The notes: generated from the sequence alone by a model not told the origin. Positions 13,048 to 30,652 are shown, numbered from the stretch's first letter. The stretch is DNA of 36,757 nucleotides from Thermoplasmatales archaeon (GCA_030019485.1 JASEEW010000001.1:1-36757), one strand, 5' to 3'. Numbers and translations: made by a program.

Positions 13048-13087
13048 GTAAAATGCAGATGTCTGCTGACTTTACAATAAGCATAGA

Positions 13088-13097: not shown

Positions 13098-13133
13098 CAC
13101 TTATCAATTACCACTTCTCTAAAAGGTGAAAAA

Positions 13134-13755: not shown

Positions 13756-14136
13756 ATGAAACTAAGAGGGCATCATCTAATATGCTTTCAGTTTTTTAGA
13801 GGAGAAGGATATAGCAAAATTTTTGTGGAAAACGCAAAAAAGATAGCTGAATACTGGGAAAAAAACCCTGCTGAAACAGTAAATCATGCAGATGATATAT
13901 GCGGGTTTTGTCCTTTTCTAAGAAATGGAAAATGCAGTAAATATGAGGATATTGAGAAGAATGATGAACTTGCATTAAAACTCTTAGGATTGAATGTAGG
14001 GGATAAGGTAAGAAAGGGTTTTGTAAAAAAACAGCTGCCAAAAATACTTAATGAATGGAAAGAAAAGGCATGTAAAAATTGTGAGTGGAAAAAACTGTGT
14101 GTATTGGAATATAAAAATATTACATCAAATGGATAA
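13756..14136 (+). CDS. DUF1284-like cysteine-rich protein
   Basis: 126 aa. N-terminal LRGHHLICFQFFRGEGYS and the paired Cys motifs (CGFCPF..C, CKNCEW..C) resemble what I recall of DUF1284. The start is 4 bp after the bioY stop. The 3' end overlaps birA by 17 bp. Confidence 0.55.
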   Translation: MKLRGHHLICFQFFRGEGYSKIFVENAKKIAEYWEKNPAETVNHADDICGFCPFLRNGKCSKYEDIEKNDELALKLLGLNVGDKVRKGFVKKQLPKILNEWKEKACKNCEWKKLCVLEYKNITSNG

Positions 14137-14824
14137 CATCACCTGAAACGATTTTTTCACCAGATTCAAGAACTAATCTGCCATGTTCATCAACATCTAC
14201 TGCTTTTCCATCAATAACCTTGTTTGTTGCTTTTATTTTTACTCTCCTGCCTATTGTGGAGCAGAGTTTTTTGTACTCATCCAAAACATTTTTCTTGGAA
14301 AATTTTTCAAAATTCTTCAGAATACTGTTTAAAACTGCATCCCTGGAAACATTTTTTCCTGTTTCATCATTTATTGATGTTGCTGTTTCCAGGGGTGTTT
14401 TATTTATGTTTACGCCAACACCAACAACAGCAAAATCATCAAGGCACTCGATGAGTATGCCTGAAATTTTTTTGTCCCCCACCATAACATCATTAGGCCA
14501 TTTTAACACTGGGAATAAACCAAAATTTTTTAATGAGACTGCAACAGTGACGCCTGCGATTAATGGAAGCATTGGGTTTTTTTTGGTAGCAATAGAAAAA
14601 TAAAGCCCGCCAAAAGGTGAAAGCCATCCCCTGTTCATTCTTCCCTTTCCTTTTGTCTGCTCATCAGCAACAACAGCAAAATTTTTTTCACCTTTCATTT
14701 CATGGAAAAATGCAGGGCATTTTTCCTGAAATATTAGGAATTTGCTCTGCAAATTCCGTAATAGAACAATTTTTTTTGCCACATCATTTGTTGAAGTTAC
14801 CTTTTTGAAATGATAAATTTTCAC
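14120..14824 (-). CDS. birA: Biotin--protein ligase (BirA catalytic type, no N-terminal HTH), carrying an in-frame insertion
   Basis: IYHFKKVTSTNDVAK .. VVADEQTKGKGRMNRGWLSPFGGLYFS .. LKWPNDV is the BPL signature (GRGR-type loop reads GKGRMNR). GTG start at 14824. There are ~20 extra residues between the STN helix and the VVADEQT strand. Confidence 0.85.
   Translation of the reverse strand: MKIYHFKKVTSTNDVAKKIVLLRNLQSKFLIFQEKCPAFFHEMKGEKNFAVVADEQTKGKGRMNRGWLSPFGGLYFSIATKKNPMLPLIAGVTVAVSLKNFGLFPVLKWPNDVMVGDKKISGILIECLDDFAVVGVGVNINKTPLETATSINDETGKNVSRDAVLNSILKNFEKFSKKNVLDEYKKLCSTIGRRVKIKATNKVIDGKAVDVDEHGRLVLESGEKIVSGDVIHLM
14701..14762 (-). repeat. Paired-palindrome element, copy 3 (inverted), inside the birA reading frame
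   Basis: GGAAAAATGC-AGG-GCATTTTTCC (14704-14726), linker TGAAATATTA, then GGAATTTGC-TCT-GCAAATTCC (14737-14757). The 21-mer is identical to 12868-12888, and the linker is the exact reverse complement of the copy 1 linker. Confidence 0.8.
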
Positions 14825-14864
14825 AAAACAAAATCGTTATTTGTGAAGATTAAGGTTTGCATCA

Positions 14865-15020
14865 GCCCTTTCTTTCTCTTTACAAGAGAAAGAAAGCGAC
14901 TGGCGGAAAGAAAGAGAAAACAGCCAACTCTCAGTTGGCTTAGGCGGTTGCTTCGCAACCGCCAATCTCTTCTTTTTTCGCCAGCGTTTTTCTTTTCTCT
15001 AAGAGAGAAAAGAAAAAGGC
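14865..15020. repeat. Composite ~155-bp palindrome containing four perfect stem-loops
   Basis: H1: CTTTCTTTCTCTT-tac-AAGAGAAAGAAAG (14868-14896). H2: AGCCAACT-ctc-AGTTGGCT (14922-14940). H3: GGCGGTTGC-ttc-GCAACCGCC (14943-14963). H4: TTTTTCTTTTCTCT-aag-AGAGAAAAGAAAAA (14987-15017). The outer parts are also mutually complementary (CGACTGGCG 14897-14905 with CGCCAGCG 14979-14986). Confidence 0.75.
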
Positions 15021-15024
15021 TGTG

Positions 15025-15354
15025 TCACATGAACGTCGGCGGACTCCCAACTGTCAGATAAACTGCTTTTTCATCACCAATATTTTTTGCCCCATGAAGA
15101 AGATTAGACTTGTGCCAGAGCGCATCGCCTTCCCCCATGACATAGAAGTTCTCTCCAACCCTGTATTCTATTTTTCCTTTAAGTAAAATGTGTATTTCCT
15201 CCCCCTCGTGTTTGTACAGTTTGGATTCCACGCCTATCCCCATCTCTGATATTACTGCTTCCATTCTTTCTGATTTCATCAGCATTCTAAACAGTTTACC
15301 TGGTTCTCCTGTTTTGTATTTTCCCTCTCCTTTTTTCATAAATATTTCATCCAT
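15025..15354 (-). CDS. Small cupin-domain protein
   Basis: ~109 aa. HEGEEIHILLKGKIEYRVGENFYVMGEGDALWHKSNLLHGAKNIG fits the two-motif cupin pattern. I prefer ATG at 15354, which follows GGGGGTGA. The listed start at 15369 is a GTG. Confidence 0.6.
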   Translation of the reverse strand: MDEIFMKKGEGKYKTGEPGKLFRMLMKSERMEAVISEMGIGVESKLYKHEGEEIHILLKGKIEYRVGENFYVMGEGDALWHKSNLLHGAKNIGDEKAVYLTVGSPPTFM

Positions 15355-15369
15355 TTTTTTCACCCCCAC

Positions 15370-15476
15370 ACTCAGTAGTTAGGGGAGAGCAGTTAGAAGT
15401 TAGGGAACATCTGACTCCTAACTCCTGATCCCTAACTCCTTGCCTTAACCCTTGATCCCTAACTACTCCCATTTTT
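15370..15476 (-). repeat. Intercistronic TTAGGG-unit hairpin element, copy 1 (pycA stop to cupin start)
   Basis: Plus strand: GTAGTTAGGGG..AGTTAGAAGTTAGGGA..TCCTAACTCCTGATCCCTAACTCC..GATCCCTAACTAC. The outer 10-bp arms GTAGTTAGGG/CCCTAACTAC and inner AGTTAGG/CCTAACT arms are complementary. Confidence 0.7.
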
Positions 15477-16922
15477 TCACCCCTGACTTGCAGAAATATA
15501 TGCCTGAACGCCAGCCATAGCAGCTGCTATTTTCGGCGCTGAACTCTGAGCTTTTTGCGCCTTCACATATTCAACAACCTGGTCAAGAATCTTATATTTT
15601 GGTATGAAGCTTGTGTTGTATTCACCTTTTACCCACTGGGAATGATTCATTACAACGGTATGGAATGGTATGTTGTTGCGTACACCCCCAATCTGAAACT
15701 CCCATAATGCCCTTTTTGTCCTTGCTATAGCCCTAGATCTGTCCTCTGCCCAGATAATCAACTTAGCAATCATTGAATCATAGAATGGTGGGATGATGAA
15801 GCCCTGGTAAACACCTGAGTCTATTCTAACACCAGGACCAGATGGCTCTGCATACCTTATGATTTTGCCTGGCGCAGGCATAAAATTGTTTAATGGGTCC
15901 TCAGCATTGATCCTGCATTCTACGGCATGCCCTCTGGGTTTTATGTCCTCTTGCTCATACTCAAGCTCCAGTCCTGATGCAACCCTGAGCTGCTCCCTTG
16001 CCAGGTCAATGCCTGTGATTGCTTCTGTTATAGGATGCTCAACCTGAAGACGCGTGTTCATCTCCAGAAAATAATATTTTCCATCCTTGAACATGAACTC
16101 ACATGTGCCGGCATTGTAATATTTTGCTGTTTTTGCTACCAGAACAGCCTGCTTTCCCATTTCTTCCCTGAGTTCTGGTGTGAGGGCACAGGAGGGTGTT
16201 TCCTCAATCAGTTTCTGATGCCTACGTTGAACACTGCATTCCCTCTCACATACATGAATAAGATGCCCGTGCTTGTCACCTATAACCTGGAACTCTATAT
16301 GACGTGGGTCTTTAATGAATTTCTCTATAAAAACAGCATCATCCCCAAATGAGTTCTTTGCCAGACGTCTTATACTCTCTAAAGTTGTATTCATCTTCTC
16401 ATCAGAGTCAACCATCTGAATACCTATTCCCCCGCCTCCGGCGGAAGCTTTAAGCATGATGGGGTAACCAATCTCATTTGCTATCTCCTTTGCCCTCTCA
16501 TGGTCAGATATAGCCTCTGTCACACCCGGCACGACATGAACGCCTGCTTCTATCATGGATTTTTTTGAGTCAATTTTTGAGCCCATGAGCTCCATTGCCC
16601 CCACAGGAGGACCAATGAATTCTATCCCGTTTTCTTTACACAACTTAGCAAAGTCGGCGTTCTCAGCCATGAAACCATAACCAGGATGTATGCCTTCCGC
16701 ATTGCATTTTAATGCCACGTCTATGATTTTTTCTTTGTTGAGATAACTCTGGGATGCCGGTCCAGGACCTATGTTGTATTTCTCATCAGCATATTTCACA
16801 AACAATGCGTTTTTGTCAGCATCAGAATAAACAGCCACAGTTGCTATACCAAGCTCCTTGCATGCCCTTATTATTCTTACAGCAATTTCTCCCCTGTTTG
16901 CAATTAGCACCTTGTTAAGCAA
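15477..16922 (-). CDS. pycA: Biotin carboxylase subunit (pyruvate carboxylase subunit A type; could equally be a 2-oxoglutarate carboxylase small subunit)
   Basis: 481 aa. KVLIANRGEIAVRIIRA, the ATP-grasp glycine loop KASAGGGGIGIQ, and EMNTRLQVEHPITE. TTG start at 16922 directly abuts the pycB TAG stop, with GGTGAT 6 nt upstream. Confidence 0.85.
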   Translation of the reverse strand: MLNKVLIANRGEIAVRIIRACKELGIATVAVYSDADKNALFVKYADEKYNIGPGPASQSYLNKEKIIDVALKCNAEGIHPGYGFMAENADFAKLCKENGIEFIGPPVGAMELMGSKIDSKKSMIEAGVHVVPGVTEAISDHERAKEIANEIGYPIMLKASAGGGGIGIQMVDSDEKMNTTLESIRRLAKNSFGDDAVFIEKFIKDPRHIEFQVIGDKHGHLIHVCERECSVQRRHQKLIEETPSCALTPELREEMGKQAVLVAKTAKYYNAGTCEFMFKDGKYYFLEMNTRLQVEHPITEAITGIDLAREQLRVASGLELEYEQEDIKPRGHAVECRINAEDPLNNFMPAPGKIIRYAEPSGPGVRIDSGVYQGFIIPPFYDSMIAKLIIWAEDRSRAIARTKRALWEFQIGGVRNNIPFHTVVMNHSQWVKGEYNTSFIPKYKILDQVVEYVKAQKAQSSAPKIAAAMAGVQAYISASQG

Positions 16923-18722
16923 CTACATCACCTGCATAAGCACATCACCTGGCTGGACAGAATCCCCTTCTTTAACAAATATCTCCTTTACTTCACCTTC
17001 CAGATCAGATGTTAACTCCTGCTCCATTTTCATGGCCTCAATAGTCAGGATAACATCCCCTTTCTTGACTTTGTCGCCTTTTTTCACCTTGAGTTTCATT
17101 ATTATTCCCTGCATAGATGATTTAACACCACCTTCAATTTCCTTTGGTTTCACTGCAGGTGCTGCACTGGGAACAGCAAAACCAGTTGGTGTAACCTTGA
17201 CCTCGTACGCCTCACCATCAACCTCGACACTGAATTCTATGGGTATGGATGCAGGCTTCCTTGCCTCAGGAGGCTCAGTTTCAATCCATATCTGTTTATG
17301 CTCAGGGAAGTATTTATTCACCATGGCCCTTGTTAAAGGATGATTGAACGGCAATGGTAATTGCTCAGAGGTAAACTCCGGGTTTGCCTCGCCTTTCAGA
17401 AACTTTAACCCTACCTGGGGGTAAATAGCATAGGTTATAACATCCTCTGGTTTTTTCACCAGTCCCATTTTCTCAAGCTCGTCCTTTCTTTTTTTATACA
17501 TTGGCTCAAGTAAATCAGATGGCCTGCATTCTATTATTTCATCCTTCCATTTTGGTCCTAGTATTGTTTTGTATATTTCCTTTGATATCTCACCAGGTGG
17601 CTTGCCGTACATTCCTTTCACATAGTCCTTTGTTTCCTTTGGGATTTTTTTGTATCTGCCGAAAAGAACATTCATCACTGCCTGAACACCAACAACCTGG
17701 GATGTGGGGGTAACAAGTGGAGGATAACCTAAATCCTTTCTGACCCTTGGCGTCTCTGCAAGAACCTCATTGTATTTATCTGCTGCACCCTGCTGCTCCA
17801 ACTGAAAAACCAGATTTGATAGCATCCCGCCTGGTATTTGATGAACAGTAACAGATGGGTCAACCTTCAACGCCGTTTGCCTGTGCAGATGCCTGTACTT
17901 GTCCCATATCTTCAAAAAATATTCCCTGCATTCCATAAGCAAATTCATGTCATAACTAGTGTCATACTCTGTTCCTTTTAATGCTGCTACAACAGATTCT
18001 GTTGCGGGCTGACCGGTGCCGCCGGAGATGGGTGAGATAGCAGTATCAAGTATGTCAACACCTGCCTCGCATGCCCTCATGTAAGCCATACCTGTCATTC
18101 CTGATGTGCAATGACTGTGTAAATCAATCGGTATTTTTATCCCTGCGTCCTTACATTCCTTTATTATGTCATAAGCCATTTTTGGTGAAATCATCCCTGC
18201 CATATCCTTAATACACAGTGAATCACAGCCCATTTTTTCCAGTTTTCTGAAATCATCAACATATCTTTCAACAGTGTGAACAGGAGAGATGGTGTAGCAC
18301 AATGAGCCCTGGGCATGACCGCCGACCTCTTTAACTGCCTCAATAGGAACCTTCATGTTCCTTAAATCATTCAATGCATCAAAAACCCTGAAATAATCAC
18401 ATCCGTCTTTTTTTGCGTAATAAATAAATTTTTTTACTATATCATCAGGGAAATTCCAGTATGCAACAATGTTCATTGCGCGCTCAAGCATCTGCAGAGG
18501 CGTGTTTGGAAGGGCAGATTTCATTTTTTTCAATCTTTCCCAGGGGTCCTCATTCAGGTATCTTATTGGAACATCAAATGTTGCACCACCCCAAACCTCA
18601 AAAGAAAAAAAACCTATTTTGTCTATGACAGGGCATATTGGAAGCATGTCCTCTGTCCTCATCCGCGTTGCAAGTATTGACTGATGCGCATCCCTAAATA
18701 TCTGCTCATGTAGTTGTACCAT
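16923..18722 (-). CDS. pycB: Carboxyltransferase + biotin-carrier subunit (pyruvate carboxylase subunit B / oxaloacetate decarboxylase alpha family)
   Basis: 599 aa. FRDAHQSILATRMRT (TIM-barrel carboxyltransferase), HCTSGM, and a C-terminal biotinyl domain with the IEAMKME biotinylation motif. Confidence 0.85.
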   Translation of the reverse strand: MVQLHEQIFRDAHQSILATRMRTEDMLPICPVIDKIGFFSFEVWGGATFDVPIRYLNEDPWERLKKMKSALPNTPLQMLERAMNIVAYWNFPDDIVKKFIYYAKKDGCDYFRVFDALNDLRNMKVPIEAVKEVGGHAQGSLCYTISPVHTVERYVDDFRKLEKMGCDSLCIKDMAGMISPKMAYDIIKECKDAGIKIPIDLHSHCTSGMTGMAYMRACEAGVDILDTAISPISGGTGQPATESVVAALKGTEYDTSYDMNLLMECREYFLKIWDKYRHLHRQTALKVDPSVTVHQIPGGMLSNLVFQLEQQGAADKYNEVLAETPRVRKDLGYPPLVTPTSQVVGVQAVMNVLFGRYKKIPKETKDYVKGMYGKPPGEISKEIYKTILGPKWKDEIIECRPSDLLEPMYKKRKDELEKMGLVKKPEDVITYAIYPQVGLKFLKGEANPEFTSEQLPLPFNHPLTRAMVNKYFPEHKQIWIETEPPEARKPASIPIEFSVEVDGEAYEVKVTPTGFAVPSAAPAVKPKEIEGGVKSSMQGIIMKLKVKKGDKVKKGDVILTIEAMKMEQELTSDLEGEVKEIFVKEGDSVQPGDVLMQVM

Positions 18723-18771
18723 TTTTTTTCACCTTTAAGGATGGGTATTACGTTGGATGTTTAAAAATGTT

Positions 18772-19257
18772 TCATTCTTTCTTTTTTAGTTTTAATCTTG
18801 TATATGGAAGCAGACCGCCTGCATCCCTGATAGCAAGAACTTCTTTTGGAAGTGCTGGAAAAGAAAAATTTTGTTCTCCGACCATGATACTTCCTTTTTC
18901 AATGTTTAGTTGAACTTCATCACCTTCTGAATAAGTTTTCACTGCCTCCGGGCATTCTATAAGAACAAGACCCTGATTAATTGCGGCTCTGTAAAATATC
19001 CGCGCAAAACTTTCAGCTACTATCGCTTGAACACCAACGGATTTAAAACCCAGAACTGGCTGCTCTCGCGAGCTGCCGCATCCAAAATTTTTCCCAGCAA
19101 AAATAACATCACCAGTTTTTACATTATCCGCAAATGATGGATCCAAATCCTCAAGGAGATGTGGTTTAATTTCCTCAGGCGTGGCGCATGTATATGTGTA
19201 TTTTCCTGGGAAAAGCTGGTCAGTGTTTATGTTGTCGCCATACTTCCATATTCTCAT
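18772..19257 (-). CDS. Aconitase-superfamily dehydratase small subunit (LeuD/HacB-like swivel domain)
   Basis: 161 aa. WKYGDNINTDQLFPGKY and GKNFGCGSSREQ. The ATGA overlap with the large subunit stop suggests translational coupling. Confidence 0.85.
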   Translation of the reverse strand: MRIWKYGDNINTDQLFPGKYTYTCATPEEIKPHLLEDLDPSFADNVKTGDVIFAGKNFGCGSSREQPVLGFKSVGVQAIVAESFARIFYRAAINQGLVLIECPEAVKTYSEGDEVQLNIEKGSIMVGEQNFSFPALPKEVLAIRDAGGLLPYTRLKLKKKE

Positions 19258-20513
19258 TTTCTCACCGTCCTTGGGTCAGTAATTTCACCATGAATGGCTG
19301 ATGCTGCAACAGTTGCGGGTGATGCAAGATAGATTTCTGCTTCTTTGCATCCCATTCTCCCCTTAAAATTTCTGTTTGCTGTGCTGAGGCATCTTTCCCC
19401 TGGTGCTAATACCCCTTGATGCGCACCCAAACATGGCCCGCAACCAGAGGGGAGTATTATTGCTCCGGCATTGCTCAAAATCTCAATATTCCCATTTCTC
19501 AAACAGTTTTCAAAAACGGTTTTTGATGCAGGAAGTATGAGCAGTCTAACATGGGGTGAAACTTTTTTTCCCTTTAAAATCCCAGCCGCAATTTCAAGGT
19601 CTTTTTCTCTTCCATTTGTGCAGGTTCCAATGAGACATTGGTTTATTTCAATCCCAGCAACTTCGGAGACAGATTTTACATTGTCCACATTGTGCGGGCA
19701 GGCAATCACTGGTTGAATTTTTGAAACATCGTATGTGAGTTCACTATGATACACAGCATCAGGGTCAGCCCATACAGGCTCATAATCCTTTACACCTGTT
19801 TTTTTCAGGTACTCAACAGTTATATCATCAACCGGGAAAACAGCGTTTTTTGCACCTGCTTCCACGCCCATGTTGGCAATGGTGAACCTGTCGCCAACAG
19901 AAAACTGTTCCATGTCGCCATGGAATTCAACAGAGCAGTAGTTCGCGCCTGAAGAACCAATATCACCTATAATATGAAGTATAACGTCTTTTGCTGAAAC
20001 CCGGTTGTTTAGTTTTCCTTTCAAATTTATCTTGATGCTTAAAGGCACCTTGAGCCATGTCTCACCTGTTAGCAGAAGGGAAGCAGCCTCAGTCCTGTCT
20101 ATCCCTGTTGAAAAAGAGTTAACAGCGCCATATGAGCAGGTGTGCGAATCACTCCCAAGTATTAAACTTCCAGGAACAGCGAAACCTTTTTCCAGAACAA
20201 TCTGATGACATACGCCTGTGCCTGCATCAAAAAAATTTTTGAGTTTGTGTTTTTTCACGAACTCCCTGATTTTTTTATGGTTAGATGCTGTTTTCTCGTC
20301 TGCCGCAGGTATTACATGGTCCAACACGATAACAGGTAGATTTTTGTCAACAATTCCATATTTTTCTATTTCATCTGAGATTTTTCCTATAATGGCTGCT
20401 GCATTATCATGCATTAAAAGATGCTCTGGTTTAACAGTGACAATCTGCCCTGGGACAGCATCCTTCAAGCCTGCCTTTTTAGCAAGAATTTTTTCAGCAA
20501 ACGTTTTCCCCAT
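19254..20513 (-). CDS. Aconitase-superfamily dehydratase large subunit (LeuC/HacA-like), canonical active site
   Basis: MHDNAA, VLDHVIPA, GVCHQIVLE, GSDSHT, ANMGVEAGA, GTCTNGR, GCGPCLG, NRNFKGRMG. I prefer the start at ATG 20513 (MGKTFAEKIL), which follows AGGTGA. The listed start at 20588 overlaps the upstream gene. Confidence 0.85.
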   Translation of the reverse strand: MGKTFAEKILAKKAGLKDAVPGQIVTVKPEHLLMHDNAAAIIGKISDEIEKYGIVDKNLPVIVLDHVIPAADEKTASNHKKIREFVKKHKLKNFFDAGTGVCHQIVLEKGFAVPGSLILGSDSHTCSYGAVNSFSTGIDRTEAASLLLTGETWLKVPLSIKINLKGKLNNRVSAKDVILHIIGDIGSSGANYCSVEFHGDMEQFSVGDRFTIANMGVEAGAKNAVFPVDDITVEYLKKTGVKDYEPVWADPDAVYHSELTYDVSKIQPVIACPHNVDNVKSVSEVAGIEINQCLIGTCTNGREKDLEIAAGILKGKKVSPHVRLLILPASKTVFENCLRNGNIEILSNAGAIILPSGCGPCLGAHQGVLAPGERCLSTANRNFKGRMGCKEAEIYLASPATVAASAIHGEITDPRTVRK

Positions 20514-20518
20514 AATAC

Positions 20519-22267: not shown

Positions 22268-22357
22268 TTACTCCTCCACCCTAGTAGCTAGGGGTTAGGG
22301 GGATTGTTTTCCTTTTTTCCCCTAATCCCTAATCCCTGATCCCTAACTACTTTCATC
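22268..22357 (-). repeat. Intercistronic TTAGGG-unit hairpin element, copy 2 (HD-gene stop to fused-dehydratase start)
   Basis: GTAGCTAGGGGTTAGGGGG (22284-22302) faces CCCCTAATCCCTAATCCCTGATCCCTAACTAC (22319-22350). The arms GTAGCTAGGG/CCCTAACTAC pair 9 of 10. Confidence 0.7.
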
Positions 22358-22948: not shown

Positions 22949-22949
22949 T

Positions 22950-24143
22950 TCATTCCATTTTTGAGATTACCGCATCTGTCATTTCCTTAGTGCTTGCTGC
23001 ACCCTGGTCAAAAACCTTTTCACTTCCAGGGAGCCTCAGCATATCATATGTCCTAACTTTCCCTTCCTCTATAACATCTGCAACTGCTTTTTTTATCCTC
23101 TCTGCTTTTTCTATCTCCCCAAGATGCTCAAGCATCATACAGGCAGATAAAATCATGGCCATTGGGTTAACAATTGATGGTTTTAAATTCGCATATTTTG
23201 GTGCTGAGCCATGTGTTGGCTCAAAGATTGCACAATCTTTTCCAATATTGGCGCTACAAGCAAAGCCGAGACCTCCAACAAGACCTGCGAAACCATCAGA
23301 GACAATATCACCAAACATGTTTCCTGCGACAATAACGCCGTAGTCCTCAGGGTTCTTTGTAAGCCACATCATCTGCGCATCTATGTTTGTGAACCAGAGT
23401 TTAATATCAGGAAAATCAGTGGATATTTTTTTTGCTTCCTCCATCATCATGCCTGAGGTTTCCCTTATCACATTTGGCTTCTCACATATTGTCACGCTTT
23501 TGTATTTGAATTTTTTTGCATAGAGAAACGCCTCCCTGATTATTCTACTGCATGCAGGTCTTGTGAAGATTCTTGTAGAAATCGCCAAGTCCTTTCCAGG
23601 CACATCTTTGAATTTTTTCATTTTTGGATGCGTTTCCAAAGCTGAACGCACATTTTCAGGAGGGTTCGTCCACTCAACACCAGAGTAAAGTCCTTCAGTG
23701 TTCTGCCTGAACACAACAACATCAACAGATGGTTCTTCAAAACTGTTTCCTTTTCTTCTGATAAAGTTCAAAGGGTTTCCTTTGAATGACCTGCATGGTC
23801 TGATGCATATATCAAGGTCAAAATGCTGCCTGAGACCAACTATTGGACTGTAATACACATAACCTTTTCCCTGAAGACCCGGCGATAACTCCTTGGCAGC
23901 CTGGTCCTTTGGCTTTGATGTAATTGCACCAAAAAGACCAATTCTGTGCTTTTCAAGAAGCTCAATTGTGCGCTGGGGTAACGCATTCCCTTCTTTAACC
24001 CAGCATCCCCATCCAATATCTGCGTTTATGTAATTTGCCTCAAAACCAGCAGCATCAAGAACCCTGAGTGCTTCTGAAAAAACGATTTTTCCAATCCCGT
24101 CACCAGGCATGGTTACAATGTTTTTTTTTCCCATGTTAATCAT
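22950..24143 (-). CDS. Isocitrate/isopropylmalate dehydrogenase-family beta-decarboxylating dehydrogenase, non-ICDH-like substrate loop
   Basis: 397 aa. TMPGDGIGK, LFGAITSKP, YSPIVGLRQHFDLDICIRPCR, FRQNTEGLY, GDIVSD. The position matching E. coli ICDH Asn115 is Ile. Confidence 0.8.
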   Translation of the reverse strand: MINMGKKNIVTMPGDGIGKIVFSEALRVLDAAGFEANYINADIGWGCWVKEGNALPQRTIELLEKHRIGLFGAITSKPKDQAAKELSPGLQGKGYVYYSPIVGLRQHFDLDICIRPCRSFKGNPLNFIRRKGNSFEEPSVDVVVFRQNTEGLYSGVEWTNPPENVRSALETHPKMKKFKDVPGKDLAISTRIFTRPACSRIIREAFLYAKKFKYKSVTICEKPNVIRETSGMMMEEAKKISTDFPDIKLWFTNIDAQMMWLTKNPEDYGVIVAGNMFGDIVSDGFAGLVGGLGFACSANIGKDCAIFEPTHGSAPKYANLKPSIVNPMAMILSACMMLEHLGEIEKAERIKKAVADVIEEGKVRTYDMLRLPGSEKVFDQGAASTKEMTDAVISKME

Positions 24144-24147
24144 TCTT

Positions 24148-25341
24148 TCATTTTTTGTAACTTGACCATTTTTCTTCCAGCTTTGGGTCCTTTAGTGTCT
24201 CAATTATGTATTTCGCCATCTCAGCCCCTGTGGCACCGTCTGCCCTGCCTGTGCAGCCTATTTTTTTCTCATATACTGTGCATATATCAAGCGCCTTTCC
24301 CAGTTTTTCTGCTTTCTCAGTAAACCCTATGTGTTTGAGTAACATAACTGTTGCTCTTATAACACTTGATGGGTCTGCATACTGTGCTCTTCCTTCCTGA
24401 ACCATTCTTGGCGCAGTACCATGGATTGCCTCAAACATAGCATATCTTTTGCCAATGTTAGCACTTCCAGCAGTACCTACACCACCCTGAAACTCTGCAG
24501 CTTCATCTGTGATTATATCCCCATAAAGGTTTGGGAGAACAACCACCTTGAATTCAGTTCTTCTTTTAGGATCAACAAGTTTTGCTGCCATTATATCAAT
24601 AAACCAGTCATCCCATTTTACGTTTGGATAATTTTTTGCTATTCTTCCAGCTGTGGATAAAAACTTTCCATCTGTGGTTTTCACAACATTAGCCTTTGTA
24701 ACAACTGTGACCCTGTTAATGCTGTTTTTACTGGCGTAATCAAATGCAAGCCTGATAATTCTTTCTGAGCCCTGAGTCGTTATGGATTTAAAATCAATTG
24801 CGAGATCATCAGTAACATTTATACCATGCTTACCAAGTATGTATTCCCCCTCTGTGTTTTCCCTGAAAAACACCCAGTCTATGCCTTCTTCCGGTACCCT
24901 GACAGGTCTGACATTTGCGAAAAGGTCAAGATCCCTCCTCATGGCAACATTTGCGCTTTCAATATTGGGCCAGGGGTCACCTTTTTTAGGTGTTGTGCAG
25001 GGACCTTTGAGCAGCACATGACATTTTTTTATTTCTTCCAATACATCATCAGGTATTGCCTTCATAACCTTTACCCTGTTCTCAATTGTAAGACCCTCAA
25101 TGGTTTTAAACCTGACCCTGCCCTTCCTGGCTTCTTCCTCCAGTAGATACTCAAGGATTTTCTGCGCCTCCTTAGTAATGTAGGGACCTATGCCGTCACC
25201 GCCAACTATGCCTATAACAATGGGTTTAAGTGTTTTGTAATCAACCCATTCCTCAGCCTTTTTCATTTTTTCTACTCTTTCTAATTCCCTTTTAACTATC
25301 CTGCCAAAATGCTCCTTTGCTTTTTCTACTGCCTCGTTCAT
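24148..25341 (-). CDS. icd: Isocitrate dehydrogenase-like (prokaryotic homodimeric type)
   Basis: ~397 aa. GGDGIGPYI, LLKGPCTTP, ESANVAMRRDLDLFANVRPVR (S-x-N as in E. coli S113/N115), FRENTEGEY, LYGDIITDEAA. I prefer ATG 25341, which follows GGGGTGA. The listed start at 25350 is a GTG. Confidence 0.8.
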   Translation of the reverse strand: MNEAVEKAKEHFGRIVKRELERVEKMKKAEEWVDYKTLKPIVIGIVGGDGIGPYITKEAQKILEYLLEEEARKGRVRFKTIEGLTIENRVKVMKAIPDDVLEEIKKCHVLLKGPCTTPKKGDPWPNIESANVAMRRDLDLFANVRPVRVPEEGIDWVFFRENTEGEYILGKHGINVTDDLAIDFKSITTQGSERIIRLAFDYASKNSINRVTVVTKANVVKTTDGKFLSTAGRIAKNYPNVKWDDWFIDIMAAKLVDPKRRTEFKVVVLPNLYGDIITDEAAEFQGGVGTAGSANIGKRYAMFEAIHGTAPRMVQEGRAQYADPSSVIRATVMLLKHIGFTEKAEKLGKALDICTVYEKKIGCTGRADGATGAEMAKYIIETLKDPKLEEKWSSYKK

Positions 25342-25350
25342 ATTCTTCAC

Positions 25351-25442
25351 CCCACACTTAGAAGTTAGCAGTTAGAAGTTAGAAGTTAGAATTCAGGGAA
25401 CTCTGACCCCTAACCCCATGACCCCTAACTCCTGATCCCTAA
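25351..25442 (-). repeat. Intercistronic TTAGGG-unit hairpin element, copy 3 (aclA stop to icd start)
   Basis: The plus-strand left arm holds tandem AGTTAGAA/AGTTAGCA units (25362-25390). The right arm is CCCCTAACCCCATGACCCCTAACTCCTGATCCCTAACTAC. The last CTA is the aclA stop codon. Confidence 0.7.
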
Positions 25443-27287
25443 CTACTGACTACTCGTTAAGTAGCATATGTCATCCCATGGGTGCCTGTAAAGCCCCTGT
25501 TTCAACCTCTTTTGGTCAAGATAATGACCCATGAGTCCAATGCTTCTGCCTAAGACAAACAACCCATTAAGCGCACCCATTGAAACATACTCGTCAGCCT
25601 CCTCCCTTGTGAATTTTCCACAGCTCCTGAGAAGGTCCACAAAACAGATGCCTATGCAGCCATCCACATTCAGAATGAGATTGTTTTTCTTCTTTGTTGT
25701 GAGCTTTTCAACCTCAAGCGCATAGTCCAGCAGAGGTGTTGCCTTGAAATGCTTTTTAACATAATCCTTTATTAAGGTCACCCTCATATCAGGGTTCTGC
25801 ACGCTCTTCACCCTGTGACCTATCCCCTGGATGTTCACACCTTTTTTCTTTTGCTCATCCACAAACTGTGAGGGTGTAAGCCCTCTGTCGTATGCTGAGG
25901 AGAACATCTGAGCTGCCCCATCTATTGCCCCCCCGAACCTTGGTCCAATGGTAAGAAGCCCTGAGACAAGTGAGGATATTAAATCCTTTCCTGCCCTTGC
26001 TGCAACAATGGTGTTATGCGCACCTGATACTGCCGGGCCATGATCAGCTGTGATCTGCAAAACCATTTCAATAAATTTGTGACCATAATCTGGGAGCTGG
26101 CGTTTGAACCAGAGCTGAGATATCACACCACCAGTACCTATATTCCTTTTGAACACATCGGTAATAGAGATGTCGCCGTAATGCAACTCTTCTCCTCTAT
26201 CATCTGAGATTGTGGAAATAAAATTTGTTGGTTTTCTAATCATTCCCATCTTCACTGCCCAAGCGTAATCCATGGGCATCCCTGGTTTTTCAGGCTCTGT
26301 TTTCTCTTTAATAACCCCTTTCTTTACAAGAGCATTATAGGTTTCATTGATTTTTTTATCAAACTCATCAAAAGAGTCTGGTACTATAGCACCTGCTTCT
26401 TTCAATGCCTTATTCTTTGCATCTGCTGTCTCAAGCTCCCCTCCTGCAAGAGCGCCTGCGTGCCCGAACTGAACCTCTGATTTGAACATCTTCGCACATG
26501 TACCTATGCACCAGGCAACCACTGGTTTTTTGATTTTACCACTTTTTATAGCTTCAACAACCTGGTATTCATCTATTCCACCAACCTCACCCAGCAGGAC
26601 AATCATCTTGATTTCAGGGTTTGCCTCATATCTTAGTATATGGTCAATGAATACAGAACCAGGGTATCTGTCACCACCAATTGCAATGCCTTCATAAACA
26701 CCGTCTGTGTTCCTAGCAATGATGTTGTTAAGCTCGTTTGACATGCCGCCTGATTTTGACACGTATGCCACACTGCCGGGTCTGTGCAGTTTGGATTCCA
26801 TGATGTTATCTATCATCCCTCCTGTGTTACCGATTTTGAATGCGCCTGCCTTTAAACCACCAACAGTAGCAGGTCCTATAATCGTTTTTTTTCTTTTTTT
26901 CGCTTCAGCAATAATCTCCTTTGTTCTCCTTTCAGGGATTCCTTCAGCAATGACTGCTACTGTTTTTATGGAATCATAACCCAGTGCCTCCATTGTAGTT
27001 GGGTAGGCTGACCTGAAGGATGCAAAATTAACAACCACATCTGCTTCAGGATGTTTTTTCACTGCATCCTTCAATTCTTTATAAACAGGTACCAGTATTT
27101 CCTTACCGCCGAAAAAGGCTTTATGAAACCCGTCCCTGCCGGAAGGATTAATTATTGCTGCAACAGAAGGTATTTTCCTTCCGCAGACATAATCAAAGTC
27201 AAGCATTCTCTGAACCGCATTCGCCTGCATGCCGTACACGAATGACTGGGTATCAACATCAAACAGGTCATACCATTTTTTTGCCAT
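25443..27287 (-). CDS. aclA: ATP-citrate lyase alpha subunit (CoA-ligase alpha-like domain + citrate-synthase-like lyase domain)
   Basis: 614 aa. [71 protein letters not shown], the phospho-His loop VQFGHAGA, and the C-terminal GIGHRVKS citrate-synthase fold. Confidence 0.92.
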
Positions 27288-27288
27288 C

Positions 27289-28563
27289 TTACTTCCCTCC
27301 TTTTAGGCCCATGGAGGCAATCCTTGTCATATGCGTCTCAGGACCGTAAACCTCAATTGGAACGCCCAGGGTATTCCCTAAGTCCTTCATCATTTTTAAC
27401 CCTGCCTGATAATTTGGTCCTCCCCTTCTGACATATATCTTCACCTTGTTTTCCTGAAGTTTTTCCTTGCTCTCCCTTAAAGCCCTTACTATGCCTTTGA
27501 ATGTATTCGCAACATCAGTGAAGTTTGCTATTCCACCACCAATAAGAAGTATTTTTCCTTTCGGGTTCTTTTCCCTTGTCATCAAATCAAGAACTGTTTT
27601 CGCATACTGATATGTGAACTCCTCACTTGGGTCGCCTGAGTACTCCCCATAGTTGGCAAGCTCTTTGCCAAGCCCTAAATCCGAGATTGTGTCAGCATAT
27701 ATCACAGATGCCCCCCCTCCTGCAACAAGCGTCCACACCCTTCCTTTCGGGTTAAGTACTGTGAGCTTCAGGGATGCCCCTGTTTTAGAATCCAGCTCCT
27801 TGATGTATTCCTCCTCCCTGCTGAAAGTTCTGCCAAACGGCGCAGGGAATTCTATTTCACCCCATTTGCTGCTGCTTTCGAACTCACCTGTGTCATCAAG
27901 TTTCGCAGCCAAATCCAAAGGCACAACCCTGTTTTTTACAACAACAAAAGGGTTTACTTCGAGATACGCGTAGTTCAAATCAGAATAAAAATTGAAAAGC
28001 GCATGAATGAACCCTGCAATTAATTCTTTTCTTTCATCTGGAACATTTCTCAAGATTTTCTTAATCTCTTCCTGGTTTGTTTTTGAGCCCACAGGAACAA
28101 GAAGTTTTTCTGATTTTGTGTCAACATCCCCAACACCCATGCCGCCGTGATGGTAGAAAAGTATTTCGTCCCCATCCCTCAACGACCTTATGCAGGCATA
28201 GTATTCATCCTCTTCTTTATGTGGTATGAACGGCTCAATGATGAAATGCGTCAGCCTGCCAGTAGTATTCTGGACTGTGAGCTCCTTGTTCATTCTTTCT
28301 TTAACCCATTTTTCAGCATCACTGAAAGACGCATTTAAAAGAAGGAGTTTGCTTTTACCCCTTCTTTTAATGAGCTGATCCGGTTTAACCACCAGCTTTT
28401 CTTTTAGAAGCCAGGGGTGTGCCTCACCCAGTTTCTTAAAATCTGTTCCCGGTGTCACCTGAGCAAAACTGTTTTCAATCACATATTTCCCATTAGAATA
28501 CTCTTTTAACAGTCGTGCCATCATCTGCTTTCCATCATACTCCCTAATTGCTCTCTGCGCCAT
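27289..28563 (-). CDS. aclB: ATP-citrate lyase beta subunit (ATP-grasp, SucC-like)
   Basis: 424 aa. [63 protein letters not shown] closely parallels the N-terminus of eukaryotic ACLY as I recall it. GGAGGAG lies before the ATG. The gap to aclA is 1 bp. Confidence 0.92.
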
Positions 28564-28582
28564 ACCTATCTCCTCCCTATTA

Positions 28583-30487
28583 TTAATTCTGATGCGTTTT
28601 TGTAAATGATAGTAATCCCCCCTCCTTTAGAATGTCTATATCCCTTGGTGTTAACGGATGCGTCGCAGGGACATCAATTTTTTTTGTCAAACTTTTCAAA
28701 GCTATATCCTTCTTGCCGAGGTCTGAAACATCCAGCTCTAAACTGTCCCCGGGATCTATTTTATCATAATCATCCGGGTTTTTCAGCTCCAGCGGCAGAA
28801 TCCCGAAATTAATCAGGTTGGCAAGATGGATTCTGGCAAATGATTTAGCTATCACTGCCTTCACACCGAGATACATTGGGCAAAGCGCTGCATGCTCCCT
28901 TGATGAGCCCTGACCATAGTTGCTTCCGCCGAGAATGAAGCCGCCTTTTTTCTCAAGAGCCCTTGCTGCAAAATTAGGGTCTATGGGCTCAAAAACATGC
29001 TTTGCATACTCAGGAACGTTTGACCTTAGGGGCAGAAGTTTGCCTGCAGGCATGATATGGTCTGTGGTTATGTCATCCCCCACCTTAATGAGCACCTCGC
29101 CTGCGAGTCTGCCAGGCAGTTTTTCCTTCTTTGGCAGAGGCGCTATGTTTGGACCCCTGATAATTTTCACATTCTCAGGTGTTTTTGAAGGATAAATAAT
29201 AAGGGTGTCATCAGGATGGAACACTGTGGGTATTGAGAATTCTGGCGGGGCATGTTTTCTTGGGTCTGTCAGTTTTCCTTCTATTGCGGTTACGGTAGCG
29301 GTTTCCACACTTGTTAAATATACCTGAGCAGATTTTGTTCCTGACCTGCCTTCAAAATTCCTGTTAAATGTTCTGATTGAAACGCCGTTTGTTGGTGGTG
29401 CCTGCCCCTGCCCTATGCAAGGACCGCATGTGCATTCAAGTATCCTGGCACCTGAGGCAATCAGATCTGCCAAAGCACCATTTTTTGCAATCTCATTAAA
29501 CACTGTCCTGGAGCCTGGTGAAATCACAAGTGAAACATTGGGATGCACCTTTTTACCTTTCAAAATCCTGGCTGCAGTCATTAAATCCTTGTAGGATGAG
29601 TTTGTGCAGGAGCCGATAGCAACCTGCTGAATCCCCATGCCTTCCAGTTCTTTTACTGTTACAACATTTCCTGGGCTATGAGGTTTTGCAATCAGCGGCT
29701 CCAACTTTGACAAATCTATTTCTATGGACTCATCATATTCAGCATCAGAATCAGGGACTAGTTCTATCCATTGGGCCTCCCTTCCCTGGGATTTTAAGAA
29801 TGCCTTTGTAATCTTGTCCGAGGGAAATACTGAGCTTGTCGCACCTGTTTCCGCGCCCATGTTTGTAATCGTTGCTCTTTCAGGCACGGAAAGGCTTTTT
29901 ACACCCTCACCACAGTATTCCAGAACCTTGTTCACACCTCCTTTCACCCCTATTCTCCTTAAAACCTCAAGAATCACATCCTTTGCCGCAACCATCTGGG
30001 GAAGTTTTCCTGTTAGCTTCACACCCACAACCTTTGGTTTTTTAAGATAAAATGCTCCTCCTGCCATTGCAATAGCAACATCAAGACCGCCTGCTCCAAT
30101 CGCGAGCGAGCCTGCACCGCCTGCTGTTGATGTATGACTGTCAGAGCCGAGTAACGTTTTACCAGGTCTTGCAAATCTTTCCAGATGAACCTGATGGCAG
30201 ATGCCGTTGCCTGCTTTGGACAATATTATCCCATATTTTGAGGCAACGCTCTGCAGATATAGGTGGTCATCAGGGTTTTTAAAATCTGTTTGAAGGGTGT
30301 TGTGGTCAACATAAGACACTGAAAGTTCTGTTTTCACCTTTGGGATGTCCAGCGCTTCAAACTGTAGATATGCCATTGTGCCTGTTGCATCCTGCGTGAG
30401 TGTTTGATCAATCTTTATGCCAATCTCGTTTTCCCTCCTCTCAACAACATGCTTCTCAAGTATTTTCTCAGCAACATTTTTTCCCAT
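28583..30487 (-). CDS. acn: Aconitate hydratase, ~630-aa single-chain (Aquifex/mitochondrial-like) type
   Basis: All canonical motifs are present: DQTLTQDATG, YVDHNTL, GICHQVHLE, GSDSHT, TNMGAETGA, GSCTNSS, CGPCIGQG, NRNFEGRSG, GQGSSREHAA. Confidence 0.9.
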   Translation of the reverse strand: MGKNVAEKILEKHVVERRENEIGIKIDQTLTQDATGTMAYLQFEALDIPKVKTELSVSYVDHNTLQTDFKNPDDHLYLQSVASKYGIILSKAGNGICHQVHLERFARPGKTLLGSDSHTSTAGGAGSLAIGAGGLDVAIAMAGGAFYLKKPKVVGVKLTGKLPQMVAAKDVILEVLRRIGVKGGVNKVLEYCGEGVKSLSVPERATITNMGAETGATSSVFPSDKITKAFLKSQGREAQWIELVPDSDAEYDESIEIDLSKLEPLIAKPHSPGNVVTVKELEGMGIQQVAIGSCTNSSYKDLMTAARILKGKKVHPNVSLVISPGSRTVFNEIAKNGALADLIASGARILECTCGPCIGQGQAPPTNGVSIRTFNRNFEGRSGTKSAQVYLTSVETATVTAIEGKLTDPRKHAPPEFSIPTVFHPDDTLIIYPSKTPENVKIIRGPNIAPLPKKEKLPGRLAGEVLIKVGDDITTDHIMPAGKLLPLRSNVPEYAKHVFEPIDPNFAARALEKKGGFILGGSNYGQGSSREHAALCPMYLGVKAVIAKSFARIHLANLINFGILPLELKNPDDYDKIDPGDSLELDVSDLGKKDIALKSLTKKIDVPATHPLTPRDIDILKEGGLLSFTKTHQN

Positions 30488-30506
30488 AAAACAGAATTAA
30501 ATTCAG

Positions 30507-30550
30507 AACATATAAACCTTACTATTAAAAACATATGAACCTTACTATTA
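30507..30550. promoter_or_regulatory. Two 21-bp direct repeats in the acn / regulator divergent promoter region; the proximal one carries a TATA-like box
   Basis: AACATATAAACCTTACTATTA (30507-30527) and AACATATGAACCTTACTATTA (30530-30550) have 1 mismatch and 23-bp periodicity. On the minus strand the first reads ..AAGGTTTATATG, with the box centred ~26 nt upstream of the acn ATG (30487). No SD motif lies between. Confidence 0.45.
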
Positions 30551-30652
30551 TATACAAACCATACAAATAAACTGTAAATATGTAGAAAAATATGAGTATT
30601 TTTATACTTTTTTATAGAAAAATATTTATCTTATAAAATCTTTACCTGTAGC

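Follow-up and report, generated by a model that had tools for sequence, protein, structure and literature searches.

Why should one archaeal operon carry two sets of aconitase-type and isocitrate dehydrogenase (ICDH)-type genes around a single citrate-cleaving enzyme? The question is raised by a complete 36,757-nt contig (here called the window) of a metagenome-assembled genome (MAG) labelled 'Thermoplasmatales archaeon' (GCA_030019485.1, JASEEW010000001.1:1-36757). Thirteen co-directional open reading frames (ORFs) run head to tail on its minus strand from 14120 to 30487. Besides aconitase and both subunits of ATP-citrate lyase (ACL), they include a five-gene stretch, idh2-HD-acnF-leuC-leuD, that we call block B. 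Numerous anaerobes among the Bacteria and Archaea carry block B, which proved to be an unnamed unit, conserved and portable. It is repeatedly linked physically to citrate-cleaving enzymes and to other enzymes of the tricarboxylic acid (TCA) cycle and its reductive form (rTCA). From this repeated synteny we give a probability of roughly 0.45 to the reading that citrate cleavage is fed by block B as a second, non-canonical line of the aconitase/ICDH type.

In the order of transcription the genes are acn-aclB-aclA-idh1-idh2-HD-acnF-leuC-leuD-pycB-pycA-cupin-birA (Table 1). They fall into three blocks: A (acn-aclB-aclA-idh1), B, and C (pycB-pycA-cupin-birA, with bioY close by). ORF calls and Pfam and NCBIfam domains bear out the thirteen genes that an earlier, sequence-only reading of the window had placed here; the domains are those that it stated, and its title left out the HD-domain and cupin genes. 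The junction lengths it quoted agree with the coordinates: 1 nt between aclB and aclA, 0 nt between pycB and pycA, a 4-nt overlap of leuC and leuD, and 49 nt between leuD and pycB. The mechanical leuC ORF (444 aa) runs into acnF. Translation of leuC almost certainly begins at the ATG at 20513, which gives a protein of 419 aa and a 5-nt gap, as called in relatives.

We compared the window with about 170 fetched loci (labelled L001-L173), whose gene content was read at the level of the contig. An identical contig sequence had been assembled independently from run SRR23186780 (L001, Logan). The same 13 genes, together with those for DUF1284 and BioY, are present in L087/L091 (JGI 3300013129), where the enzymes are 85-94% identical to those of the window and birA 72%, and where all junctions (read in L087) are ≤45 nt or overlapping. 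A more distant relative, L089 (NCBI GCA_034660695.1; AcnF 78%), is packed equally tightly, with junctions ≤45 nt, and differs from the window order at block C, where OadG/OadB stand in place of PycA. The gene order was also found in L088 (ENA ERZ27247969) and in the partial contigs L082, L092, L093 and L153. Samples that are independent of one another thus share the order, so the genes do not lie together by chance. Because the relatives keep it with junctions ≤45 nt, the assignment of the 13 genes to one operon is solid, and they are very probably co-transcribed. The short junctions in relatives and a single conserved promoter element before acn agree with the earlier proposal of a co-regulated citrate-arm module that includes its own cofactor supply (birA, bioY).

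The gene identities in block A are solid at the family level, with activities predicted from homology. AclB matches PF24948 (302 bits, cutoff 83) and PF16114 (298 bits), the domains of a beta subunit. AclA matches CoA-binding, CoA-ligase and citrate-synthase-like domains, and the phosphohistidine motif GHAGA is readable in its translation, so that domains and loop together point to a two-subunit ACL. Acn scores 943 bits against the aconitate hydratase model NF005558 (cutoff 612). Active-site positions were mapped through HMMER alignments to pig aconitase (Gln72, Asp100-His101, His147, Asp165-Ser166-His167, Asn258, Glu262, Cys358/421/424, Asn446-Arg447, Arg452, Arg580, Ser642, Arg644) and extended to about 100 family members; Acn is canonical at every one, including Gln72, His101 and Arg580. 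The dehydrogenase Idh1 carries E-S-A-N-V-A-M-R-R, with Ser113-x-Asn115 and Arg119/129/153, Tyr160, Lys230 and Asp283/307/311 all in place. Its closest relatives in the PDB are NAD-dependent isocitrate dehydrogenases (NAD-IDHs), it stays below all NCBIfam equivalog cutoffs (best 263 against 509), and among the fetched loci it is confined to the window lineage. Idh1 and Idh2 are 31% identical. A heteromeric ICDH built from the two, like mitochondrial IDH3, was rejected as a general explanation, as idh2 occurs without idh1 in all other lineages.

The ACL part of the operon is already known for the phylum. The sequence-only reading had called two-subunit ACL uncommon in Archaea, a view now outdated: at E≤1e-30 at least 7,916 AclB homologues passed, the best 120 of them ~70-90% identical to the window protein and many named as Thermoplasmata or Euryarchaeota MAGs; homologues in Thermoplasmata MAGs show 70-91% identity. 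ACL-type rTCA potential in Thermoplasmatota has also been published (PMC9802188, PMC11287216), and the ACL of this phylum features in phylogenies on the origin of eukaryotes (PMC11976288). Other Thermoplasmata have a plain acn-icd-aclB-aclA operon whose ICDH is of type II, a subfamily unlike Idh1; in one of them (L083), POR-type and FAD_binding_2 genes adjoin the ACL operon. ACL, aconitase and ICDH of the ACL-type rTCA cycle are thus all predicted in the window. The 36.8-kb contig contains no gene for 2-oxoglutarate:ferredoxin oxidoreductase (OGOR), pyruvate:ferredoxin oxidoreductase (PFOR) or fumarate reductase, and the earlier caveat that the window alone cannot show reductive flux still holds.

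What sets block B apart is that its enzymes resemble named families and match none of them. AcnF, a single chain that joins LeuC- and LeuD-type domains, falls below every NCBIfam cutoff, subfamily models included. At the mapped positions the window protein departs from the aconitase pattern, with Arg72, Cys101, Thr147/His148, Ser258 and Lys452 and no Arg580. Every other AcnF, fused or split, bacterial or archaeal, does likewise (Arg72, Cys/Thr/Leu101, Ser/Thr147-His148, Ser258, Lys452, no Arg580), and the small-domain loop where Arg580 is missing reads DTDMIFHNKYL[ASHT]IT (KYLSIT in the window). Retained are the three cluster cysteines, Asp165, Ser166, His167, Glu262, Arg447, Ser642 and Arg644. 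We take Gln72 of pig aconitase to contact the gamma-carboxylate of the substrate, and the Arg at this position in AcnF could stand in for the missing Arg580. In all, AcnF is altered at six of the mapped positions; across the aconitase superfamily more than 15 of 20 active-site residues are normally identical (PMC8184944). We have not filed AcnF as an aconitase, though it may still work like one. It was also considered as the homoaconitase of methanogens and rejected, the split AcnF of Methanomassiliicoccales lying below the HacA and HacB cutoffs.

The partner of AcnF is a LeuC/LeuD-like pair. LeuC, in the window and in all other AcnF partners, keeps the canonical large-subunit residues (H-D-H-H-Q-D-S-H-N-E-C-C-C-N-R-R) and misses the equivalogs LEU2 (472 against 611) and HacA (456 against 550). 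LeuD misses the leud equivalog (155 against 246). Its loop in the acnF partners is G[KR]YTY[TE], as against YLVY in isopropylmalate isomerase (IPMI; 3VBA), YLRT in homoaconitase (2PKP) and YNLT in 1V7L, so that neither loop nor scores are those of an IPMI or a homoaconitase; we refer to the pair as YTY-LeuCD. Idh2 has lost the ICDH motif, reading S-P-I-V-[GA]-L-R (S-P-I-V-G-L-R in the window), with Ile at the position of Asn115, a residue presumably conserved in ICDHs. Its catalytic Arg, Tyr, Lys and Asp are all in place. Its cofactor motif HGSAPKYA is family-wide; we take it to be of the NADP type, corresponding to Lys344-Tyr345 of E. coli ICDH, and to be typical of ICDH and not of isopropylmalate or homoisocitrate dehydrogenases (IPMDH, HICDH). 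The best NCBIfam score of Idh2 is against AksF2 (282 against 540), and none of AcnF, LeuC, LeuD, Idh1 and Idh2 reaches any equivalog cutoff.

The fifth member, a 191-193-aa HD-domain protein (homologues P0241-P0360), is 68-73% identical between this archaeon and Eisenbacteria, Aminicenantes, Planctomycetota and WOR-3, with invariant H65, H103-D104, H130, H154, H171 and D174. It has no sequence match in the PDB, and its AF2 model (pLDDT 88) matches only generic HD phosphohydrolases (best YhaM, TM 0.6). The sequence-only reading had noted that a textbook cycle would need fewer isomerase and dehydrogenase genes and had suggested an undescribed reaction. The surplus is real, and an undescribed function is plausible because no named equivalog is reached and active-site and specificity residues are non-canonical; the genes are, however, no loose paralogues but a discrete five-gene unit.

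How widely is this unit distributed? Block B was surveyed by a scan for AcnF in one genome per species, a metagenome scan, tblastn mapping and two look-ups from the HD protein. The order idh2-(HD)-acnF-leuC-leuD is present in Krumholzibacteriota, Bacteroidota, Aminicenantes, Eisenbacteria, WOR-3, Clostridia-labelled MAGs and other Thermoplasmata, and AcnF is encoded by split genes in Heimdall-, Hod- and Borrarchaeia, Bathyarchaeia and Methanomassiliicoccales. Between Archaea and Bacteria, AcnF is 47-66% identical and the HD protein ~70%; the idh2 orthologues beside acnF in bacteria show 52-72% identity. Neighbours were counted in 63 non-redundant loci with ≥3 kb on both sides of acnF. A LeuCD partner was present in 35, idh2 in 25, HD in 14, Kor in 14, malic enzyme in 14, PFOR in 9 and a match to a citrate-cleaving-enzyme query in 12; acnF stood alone in 21 of the 63, mostly as the split archaeal form. 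The Bacteroidota LeuCD partner is itself fused (593 aa). In Bacteroidales (L008, L010, L014 and others, at ~9000-13700 in each) the unit comes down to two genes for single chains, a ~605-aa AcnF and a ~593-aa YTY-LeuCD, usually without idh2 or HD and with an AraC-family regulator upstream, an arrangement that suggests a substrate-inducible isomerisation step.

The citrate-cleaving enzyme beside the unit changes from lineage to lineage. In the window lineage it is ACL, and there alone, among the fetched loci, does a canonical aconitase stand beside acnF; block B was joined to the canonical acn/ACL set in this lineage. In L099 (6553-9974) and L130 (13617-17158) a 428-aa SucC-like subunit and a 712-aa fusion of citryl-CoA synthetase and citryl-CoA lyase (CCS-CCL) lie directly beside the acnF unit. 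The 712-aa protein is a SucD-like domain fused to a full citrate-synthase/citryl-CoA-lyase domain ('type II ACL' or CCS-CCL fusion), and this two-gene enzyme is only ~30% identical to AclA. CitF and a 255-aa citryl-CoA lyase adjoin block B in L002 and L096-98, and a CitD-E fusion and CitF do so in L048, L076, L109 and L173. Against the citF equivalog, the CitF of L090 scores above the cutoff and two other CitF fall 3-6 bits short, and the citryl-CoA lyases beside block B pass the citryl-CoA-lyase subfamily models. Elsewhere block B adjoins KorABC, malic enzyme and PFOR (Krumholzibacteriota) or comes after true sucCD (Eisenbacteria, L171). L130 has the order KorA-KorBC-idh2-HD-acnF-leuC-leuD-CCS/CCL-aminotransferase-HgdAB-like, and here, in Krumholzibacteriota and in L173 the adjoining genes encode consecutive TCA steps. 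We found no earlier description of the cluster, of the AcnF-like clade or of these Krumholzibacteriota TCA enzymes in the literature searched. New here are the AcnF/YTY-LeuCD/Idh2/HD unit, its spread across domains and its recurrent pairing with interchangeable citrate-cleaving enzymes.

If block B is a line that feeds citrate cleavage, AcnF and YTY-LeuCD, as two Fe-S (de)hydratases, would perform or share a hydroxy-acid isomerisation, Idh2 would carry out an NADP-linked oxidative decarboxylation or reductive carboxylation, and the flux would be coupled to whatever citrate-cleaving enzyme the host has. Block A would interconvert 2-oxoglutarate, isocitrate, citrate, and acetyl-CoA plus oxaloacetate; block C would connect oxaloacetate and pyruvate through a biotin enzyme and would supply and attach the biotin. 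The operon as a whole would then move carbon among 2-oxoglutarate, citrate, acetyl-CoA, oxaloacetate and pyruvate, either as the citrate arm of an ACL-type rTCA cycle or as a reductive-carboxylation route for the breakdown of glutamate and 2-oxoglutarate. The neighbours that encode consecutive TCA steps, Arg72 of AcnF, and the NADP motif and S-x-x-V-[AG]-L-R segment of Idh2 speak for citrate as the substrate. A precedent for two aconitase-family enzymes that share one isomerisation is the conversion of homocitrate to homoisocitrate by fungi and Thermus (PMC3556520).

Several observations weigh against this reading. The operon itself retains a canonical acn and idh1, and it would be a strange redundancy for one promoter to drive two sets of the same function. 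AcnF is without His101, to which the protonation of the leaving hydroxyl has been assigned in aconitase (PMC8184944), and neither small-domain loop, KYLSIT in AcnF or KYTYT in LeuD, has the Arg that aconitase and homoaconitase use for the gamma-carboxylate. Idh2 is without the Asn115 found in the aligned E. coli ICDH and in Idh1, and it has Val where Thermus HICDH has Arg85. The split AcnF genes of Asgard archaea, Bathyarchaeia and Methanomassiliicoccales lie among genes for DnaJ, SAM synthetase, glycosyltransferases and tRNA synthetase, which give no TCA clue. The reading draws on sequence and synteny.

A more specific version, which we put forward tentatively and with less assurance, is that AcnF, YTY-LeuCD, the Asn115-less Idh2 and the HD protein make up an unrecognised citrate-to-2-oxoglutarate system, a split aconitase without His101 with its own dehydrogenase. 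It would be used by many uncultured anaerobes (Thermoplasmatota, Asgard archaea, Bathyarchaeia, Bacteroidota, Krumholzibacteriota, Aminicenantes, WOR-3 and Eisenbacteria) instead of, or alongside, textbook aconitase and ICDH.

Could the substrate be an analogue of citrate? Block B would then be a 2-oxoacid/3-substituted malate/2-substituted malate line, for example 2-oxobutyrate/3-methylmalate/citramalate or 2-oxoadipate/homoisocitrate/homocitrate, in which each dehydratase takes one half-reaction or a different stereoisomer and the neighbouring lyase-type enzyme makes or splits the tertiary hydroxy-acid. This is the main rival reading, in our view rather less likely than the first. A distinct substrate would explain why acn and idh1 persist in the same operon. 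The residues of Idh2 at the Asn115 and Arg85 positions (Ile and Val) fit an analogue, its best family matches are homoisocitrate dehydrogenases, AksF2 and AksF, and the best solved relatives of AcnF and LeuCD are subunits of the M. jannaschii isopropylmalate/citramalate isomerase. The absence of Arg from both small-domain loops points the same way, as does the aminotransferase and 2-hydroxyacyl-CoA-dehydratase-type company of the unit in L130. There is also a precedent: in fungi and Thermus the isomerisation of homocitrate to homoisocitrate is split between two aconitase-family enzymes, both of them needed, and an Arg-to-Lys change tunes specificity (PMC3556520); AcnF has Arg452Lys. However, across the ~170 loci the 26 query proteins matched only the TCA-type enzymes listed above. 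No homocitrate, citramalate or isopropylmalate synthase appeared among the neighbour families run through Pfam, the neighbouring ORFs having been annotated in part. The adjoining cleavage enzymes are citrate-type by their family scores, the window ACL is ~72% identical to the ACLs of the plain acn-icd-acl operons of other Thermoplasmata, and the TCA or rTCA cycle is also where the neighbours SucCD, KorABC, malic enzyme and PFOR belong. The cofactor motif of Idh2, which we take to be ICDH-typical, also tells against an analogue.

An ordinary pathway of leucine, isoleucine or lysine biosynthesis (LeuCD/LeuB or HacAB/HICDH) that happens to lie beside TCA genes in a '2-oxoacid precursor' super-operon is more doubtful still, and we think it improbable. 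Several LeuCD/HacAB paralogues are common in Archaea. The catalytic residues of LeuC and LeuD are canonical, their scores lie above the archaeal IPMI/homoaconitase subfamily models, and the housekeeping surroundings of the split AcnF in Asgard archaea and Methanomassiliicoccales would suit the idea. Yet no LeuC, LeuD, LeuB, HacA, HacB or AksF equivalog cutoff is reached, no leuA, cimA or ilv gene was seen among those neighbour families that were annotated, and the bacterial units adjoin citrate lyase, Kor, malic enzyme or an AraC-type regulator. Identity to a true leuC-leuD-leuB cluster (L074) is just 48%, 40% and 30%.

Block C bears on the direction of carbon flow. In the window a biotin carboxylase and a carboxyltransferase/biotinyl subunit stand side by side, their identities solid at the family level: PycB scores 782 bits against NF006761 (cutoff 402) and has HMGL-like, PYC_OADA and biotinyl domains, and PycA passes NF006406 with 741.9 bits against 739. 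In L089 (12209-15236) the place of PycB-PycA is taken by an OadA 68% identical to the window PycB, a 56-aa single-transmembrane OadG-like ORF and an OAD_beta protein (503 bits), followed by the same cupin, birA and bioY and without a biotin carboxylase at that place. By Pfam the window has neither OAD_beta nor the gamma anchor; the OadGAB set was seen in L089 only. Because the orthologous carboxyltransferase pairs with OadG/OadB there, block C probably acts at the oxaloacetate/pyruvate node and not on oxalosuccinate. Of the two products that the sequence-only reading had allowed for the carboxylase, oxaloacetate is therefore the likelier; the same swap disfavours PycAB as a 2-oxoglutarate carboxylase, a reading that is not supported. 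The synteny indicates that one orthologous carboxyltransferase would serve an ATP-dependent carboxylase here and a Na+-pumping decarboxylase in L089, and that flux direction at the node probably differs, or is flexible, among close relatives. The citrate lyases and oxaloacetate decarboxylase of the relatives argue for cleavage and decarboxylation, from 2-oxoglutarate or citrate to acetyl-CoA and pyruvate, while the window PycAB would fit an anaplerotic role in an rTCA cycle or a branch towards biosynthesis.

BirA scores 166 bits against TIGR00121 (cutoff 83) and has the two Pfam domains of a biotin-protein ligase given in Table 1. The cupin gene between the biotin enzyme and birA is also present in L087 and L089. 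The biotin transporter that had been noted next door is there, on the opposite strand, with the DUF1284 gene between it and birA; in L087 too the pair adjoins birA. The DUF1284 protein is small and Cys-rich and is kept between bioY and birA in the lineage (L087, 17744-18115).

If the operon is one transcript, what are its longer spacers? There are four, of about 90, 92-101, 107 and 200 nt, and the sequence-only reading had called all of them structured. Compared with shuffled sequences, three of the four fold significantly better (aclA/idh1, z -4.05; pycA/cupin, z -3.66; cupin/birA, z -6.6), and the HD/acnF spacer does not (z -1.0). Three spacers hold copies of a TTAGGG-rich palindromic element of the form AGTAGTTAGGGATCAGG...CCCTAAC...CTAACTACT (sense = minus strand), for which a pattern search gave 6 matches against 0.04 expected. 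The HD/acnF copy reads GGG-N4-GGG-N4-GGG-N4-GGGG and could form a G-quadruplex besides a hairpin. The cupin/birA spacer has a T-rich run immediately after the cupin stop and the inverted repeats I1, I5 and I18. In relatives these insertions are missing: the aclA/idh1 junction of L087 and L089 lacks the element, HD/acnF is 0-1 nt there, pycA and cupin overlap in L087, and only 1-3 nt separate cupin from birA in L087 and L089. Among the 170 loci searched the element was found in this genome only, and Rfam and tRNA scans of the window, spacers included, gave no match. With no Rfam match and no counterpart at the relatives' junctions, a conserved regulatory RNA in the spacers was ruled out; the spacers are lineage-specific insertions into an operon. 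Because the TTAGGG element is absent from the relatives and from all other fetched loci, it looks like a small mobile or REP-like repeat. The 200-nt hairpin array might terminate or stabilise the transcript and so uncouple birA.

Upstream of acn, ~30 nt before its ATG, lies an element with the features of a transcription factor B recognition element and TATA box (BRE/TATA), AATAGTAAGGTT[C/T]ATATGTT (conserved form AATAGTAAGGTTTATATGTTC), in tandem duplicate in the window only. A single copy is kept in the corresponding upstream regions of L087 (1804-1945) and L082 (7952-8093), and the distance from TATA to ATG implies a very short leader. The divergent TrmB-like gene beyond it keeps its place in L087 and L088, at 93% identity, with a same-sized gene there in L082, which makes its product a candidate regulator.

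Table 1 Features of the operon and its surroundings in the window, in order of transcription of the operon and then outward
Feature	Position	Strand	Basis
Operon promoter region	30488-30652	-	BRE/TATA-like element upstream of acn
acn, canonical single-chain aconitase, 634 aa, first gene	28583-30487	-	NCBIfam NF005558
aclB, ATP-citrate lyase beta subunit, ATP-grasp and citrate-binding domain	27289-28563	-	PF24948, PF16114
aclA, ATP-citrate lyase alpha subunit	25443-27287	-	PF02629, PF00549, PF00285
TTAGGG-rich palindromic element, copy 1, aclA/idh1 spacer	25351-25442	-	Pattern search, fold z
idh1, ICDH-type beta-decarboxylating dehydrogenase, motif ESANVAMRR	24148-25341	-	PF00180
idh2, non-canonical ICDH/IPMDH/HICDH-family dehydrogenase	22950-24143	-	PF00180
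HD-domain protein, 193 aa	22358-22939	-	PF01966
TTAGGG-rich palindromic element, copy 2, HD/acnF spacer, four G-tracts	22268-22357	-	Pattern search
acnF, fused LeuC+LeuD-type aconitase-superfamily protein, 582 aa	20519-22267	-	PF00330, PF00694
leuC-like large subunit, 419 aa	19254-20513	-	NF001614 subfamily, 546 bits
leuD-like small subunit, 161 aa, loop G-K-Y-T-Y-T	18772-19257	-	Alignments to 3VBA, 2PKP, 1V7L
pycB, carboxyltransferase and biotin-carrier subunit, OadA/PycB type	16923-18722	-	NF006761
pycA, biotin carboxylase subunit	15477-16922	-	NF006406
TTAGGG-rich palindromic element, copy 3, pycA/cupin spacer	15370-15476	-	Pattern search, fold z
Small cupin, 114 aa	15025-15369	-	PF07883
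cupin/birA 200-nt spacer, four near-perfect hairpins	14825-15024	-	Inverted repeats, fold z
birA, biotin-protein ligase	14120-14824	-	TIGR00121, PF03099, PF02237
DUF1284 gene, convergent with birA	13756-14136	+	PF06935
bioY, biotin transporter S component	13053-13751	+	PF02632
TrmB-like winged-helix protein, 344 aa, divergent	30653-31687	+	PF01978
IS701/ISC1217-type DDE transposase	31886-32941		

The cluster differs in composition from its surroundings. Its genes have a GC content of 0.40-0.45 and a third-position GC content (GC3) of 0.29-0.45, against 0.31-0.38 and 0.25-0.35 in the left flank; first-position GC (GC1) is higher in the cluster as well, and birA and DUF1284 have flank-like GC3. 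Such a step is compatible with high expression, an enzyme-type amino-acid composition or an older transfer. An origin of the cluster as a chimera of assembly or binning, or as a recent and functionally unintegrated horizontal import, is very improbable: the higher GC and GC3 (GC ~0.43 against ~0.34 in the flanks), the nearby transposase and the 59-72% identity of Idh2, HD and AcnF to proteins on bacterial-labelled contigs would fit it, but the TrmB-like, DUF1284 and BioY flanks and the gene order are conserved in other samples at 72-94% protein identity, the contig was assembled twice independently, soluble enzymes should have a higher GC1 than glycosyltransferases and surface proteins, and birA has flank-like GC3 within the cluster.

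Past the TrmB-like gene, at a distance of 1.4 kb upstream from the operon promoter, is the transposase gene. The region beyond the TrmB-like gene varies, with DUF3800 in L087 and Fic and methyltransferase genes in L082. On the other side of the operon, 863-11041 is a surface-glycosylation cluster of four GT1/GT4 and GT2 glycosyltransferases, a methyltransferase, a sugar nucleotidyltransferase and a UDP-glucose dehydrogenase, followed at 11521-12774 by an archaeal-type MiaB-like methylthiotransferase. Surface proteins with CARDB and PKD domains lie at both ends of the contig.

If block B is an alternative aconitase/ICDH system, judgements of TCA or rTCA completeness that rely on canonical markers would go wrong for many uncultured anaerobes, Asgard archaea among them. 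Should it handle a citrate analogue, it would define a new 2-oxoacid pathway. The ACL-based carbon metabolism of Thermoplasmatota has so far been deduced from marker genes only. Here two parallel sets of isomerase and dehydrogenase connect to the citrate node of one lineage, as does a carboxylase that is exchangeable for a Na+-decarboxylase, and this arrangement calls for different models of flux direction and energy yield.

Which known systems does the operon resemble? The Hydrogenobacter-type set of CCS/CCL, CfiAB and an oxalosuccinate-reducing ICDH also has a pair of PycA/PycB architecture beside ICDH-family genes, and relatives of block B adjoin CCS-CCL-type enzymes; the window has ACL, and its carboxyltransferase has an orthologue paired with OadBG in L089. 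The citrate fermentation locus of Klebsiella and its relatives (CitDEF with OadGAB) likewise combines a citrate-cleaving enzyme and an OadA-type carboxyltransferase in one operon; L089 has the full OadA-OadG-OadB, and a biotin ligase and transporter are close by. The window differs from it in using ACL in place of CitDEF, in pairing the carboxyltransferase with PycA, in having no citrate carrier and in including aconitase/ICDH-type genes. Among solved structures, AcnF and LeuC/LeuD come closest to the M. jannaschii isopropylmalate/citramalate isomerase (4KP1/3VBA) and homoaconitase (4KP2/2PKP), and they have the Fe-S cysteines and the Ser642/Arg644 motif GSSR in common with these. Unlike these enzymes, AcnF is a single fused chain and differs at positions 72, 101, 147, 258, 452 and 580, and the LeuD loop is KYTYT and not YLVY or YLRT. 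The alpha-aminoadipate pathway of fungi and Thermus (Aco2 with homoaconitase) resembles block B in using two aconitase-superfamily enzymes, with Arg/Lys changes in the active site, for what is apparently one isomerisation (PMC3556520). Block B has no homocitrate synthase or lysine genes among its annotated neighbours and combines an IPMI-like heterodimer with a fused non-canonical enzyme in a context of citrate cleavage. Closest to block A are the ACL-type rTCA sets of Chlorobium, Campylobacterota and Nitrospira and the acn-icd-aclB-aclA operon of other Thermoplasmatota MAGs, the window sharing with them a two-subunit AclB/AclA beside aconitase and an ICDH-family gene. Compared with the rTCA sets, OGOR, PFOR and fumarate reductase are absent from the window. 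Compared with the plain Thermoplasmatota operon, the ICDH of the window is of the NAD-IDH-like 'SAN' type and follows aclA, whereas there a type-II enzyme stands between acn and aclB, and the window operon extends this core by nine further genes.

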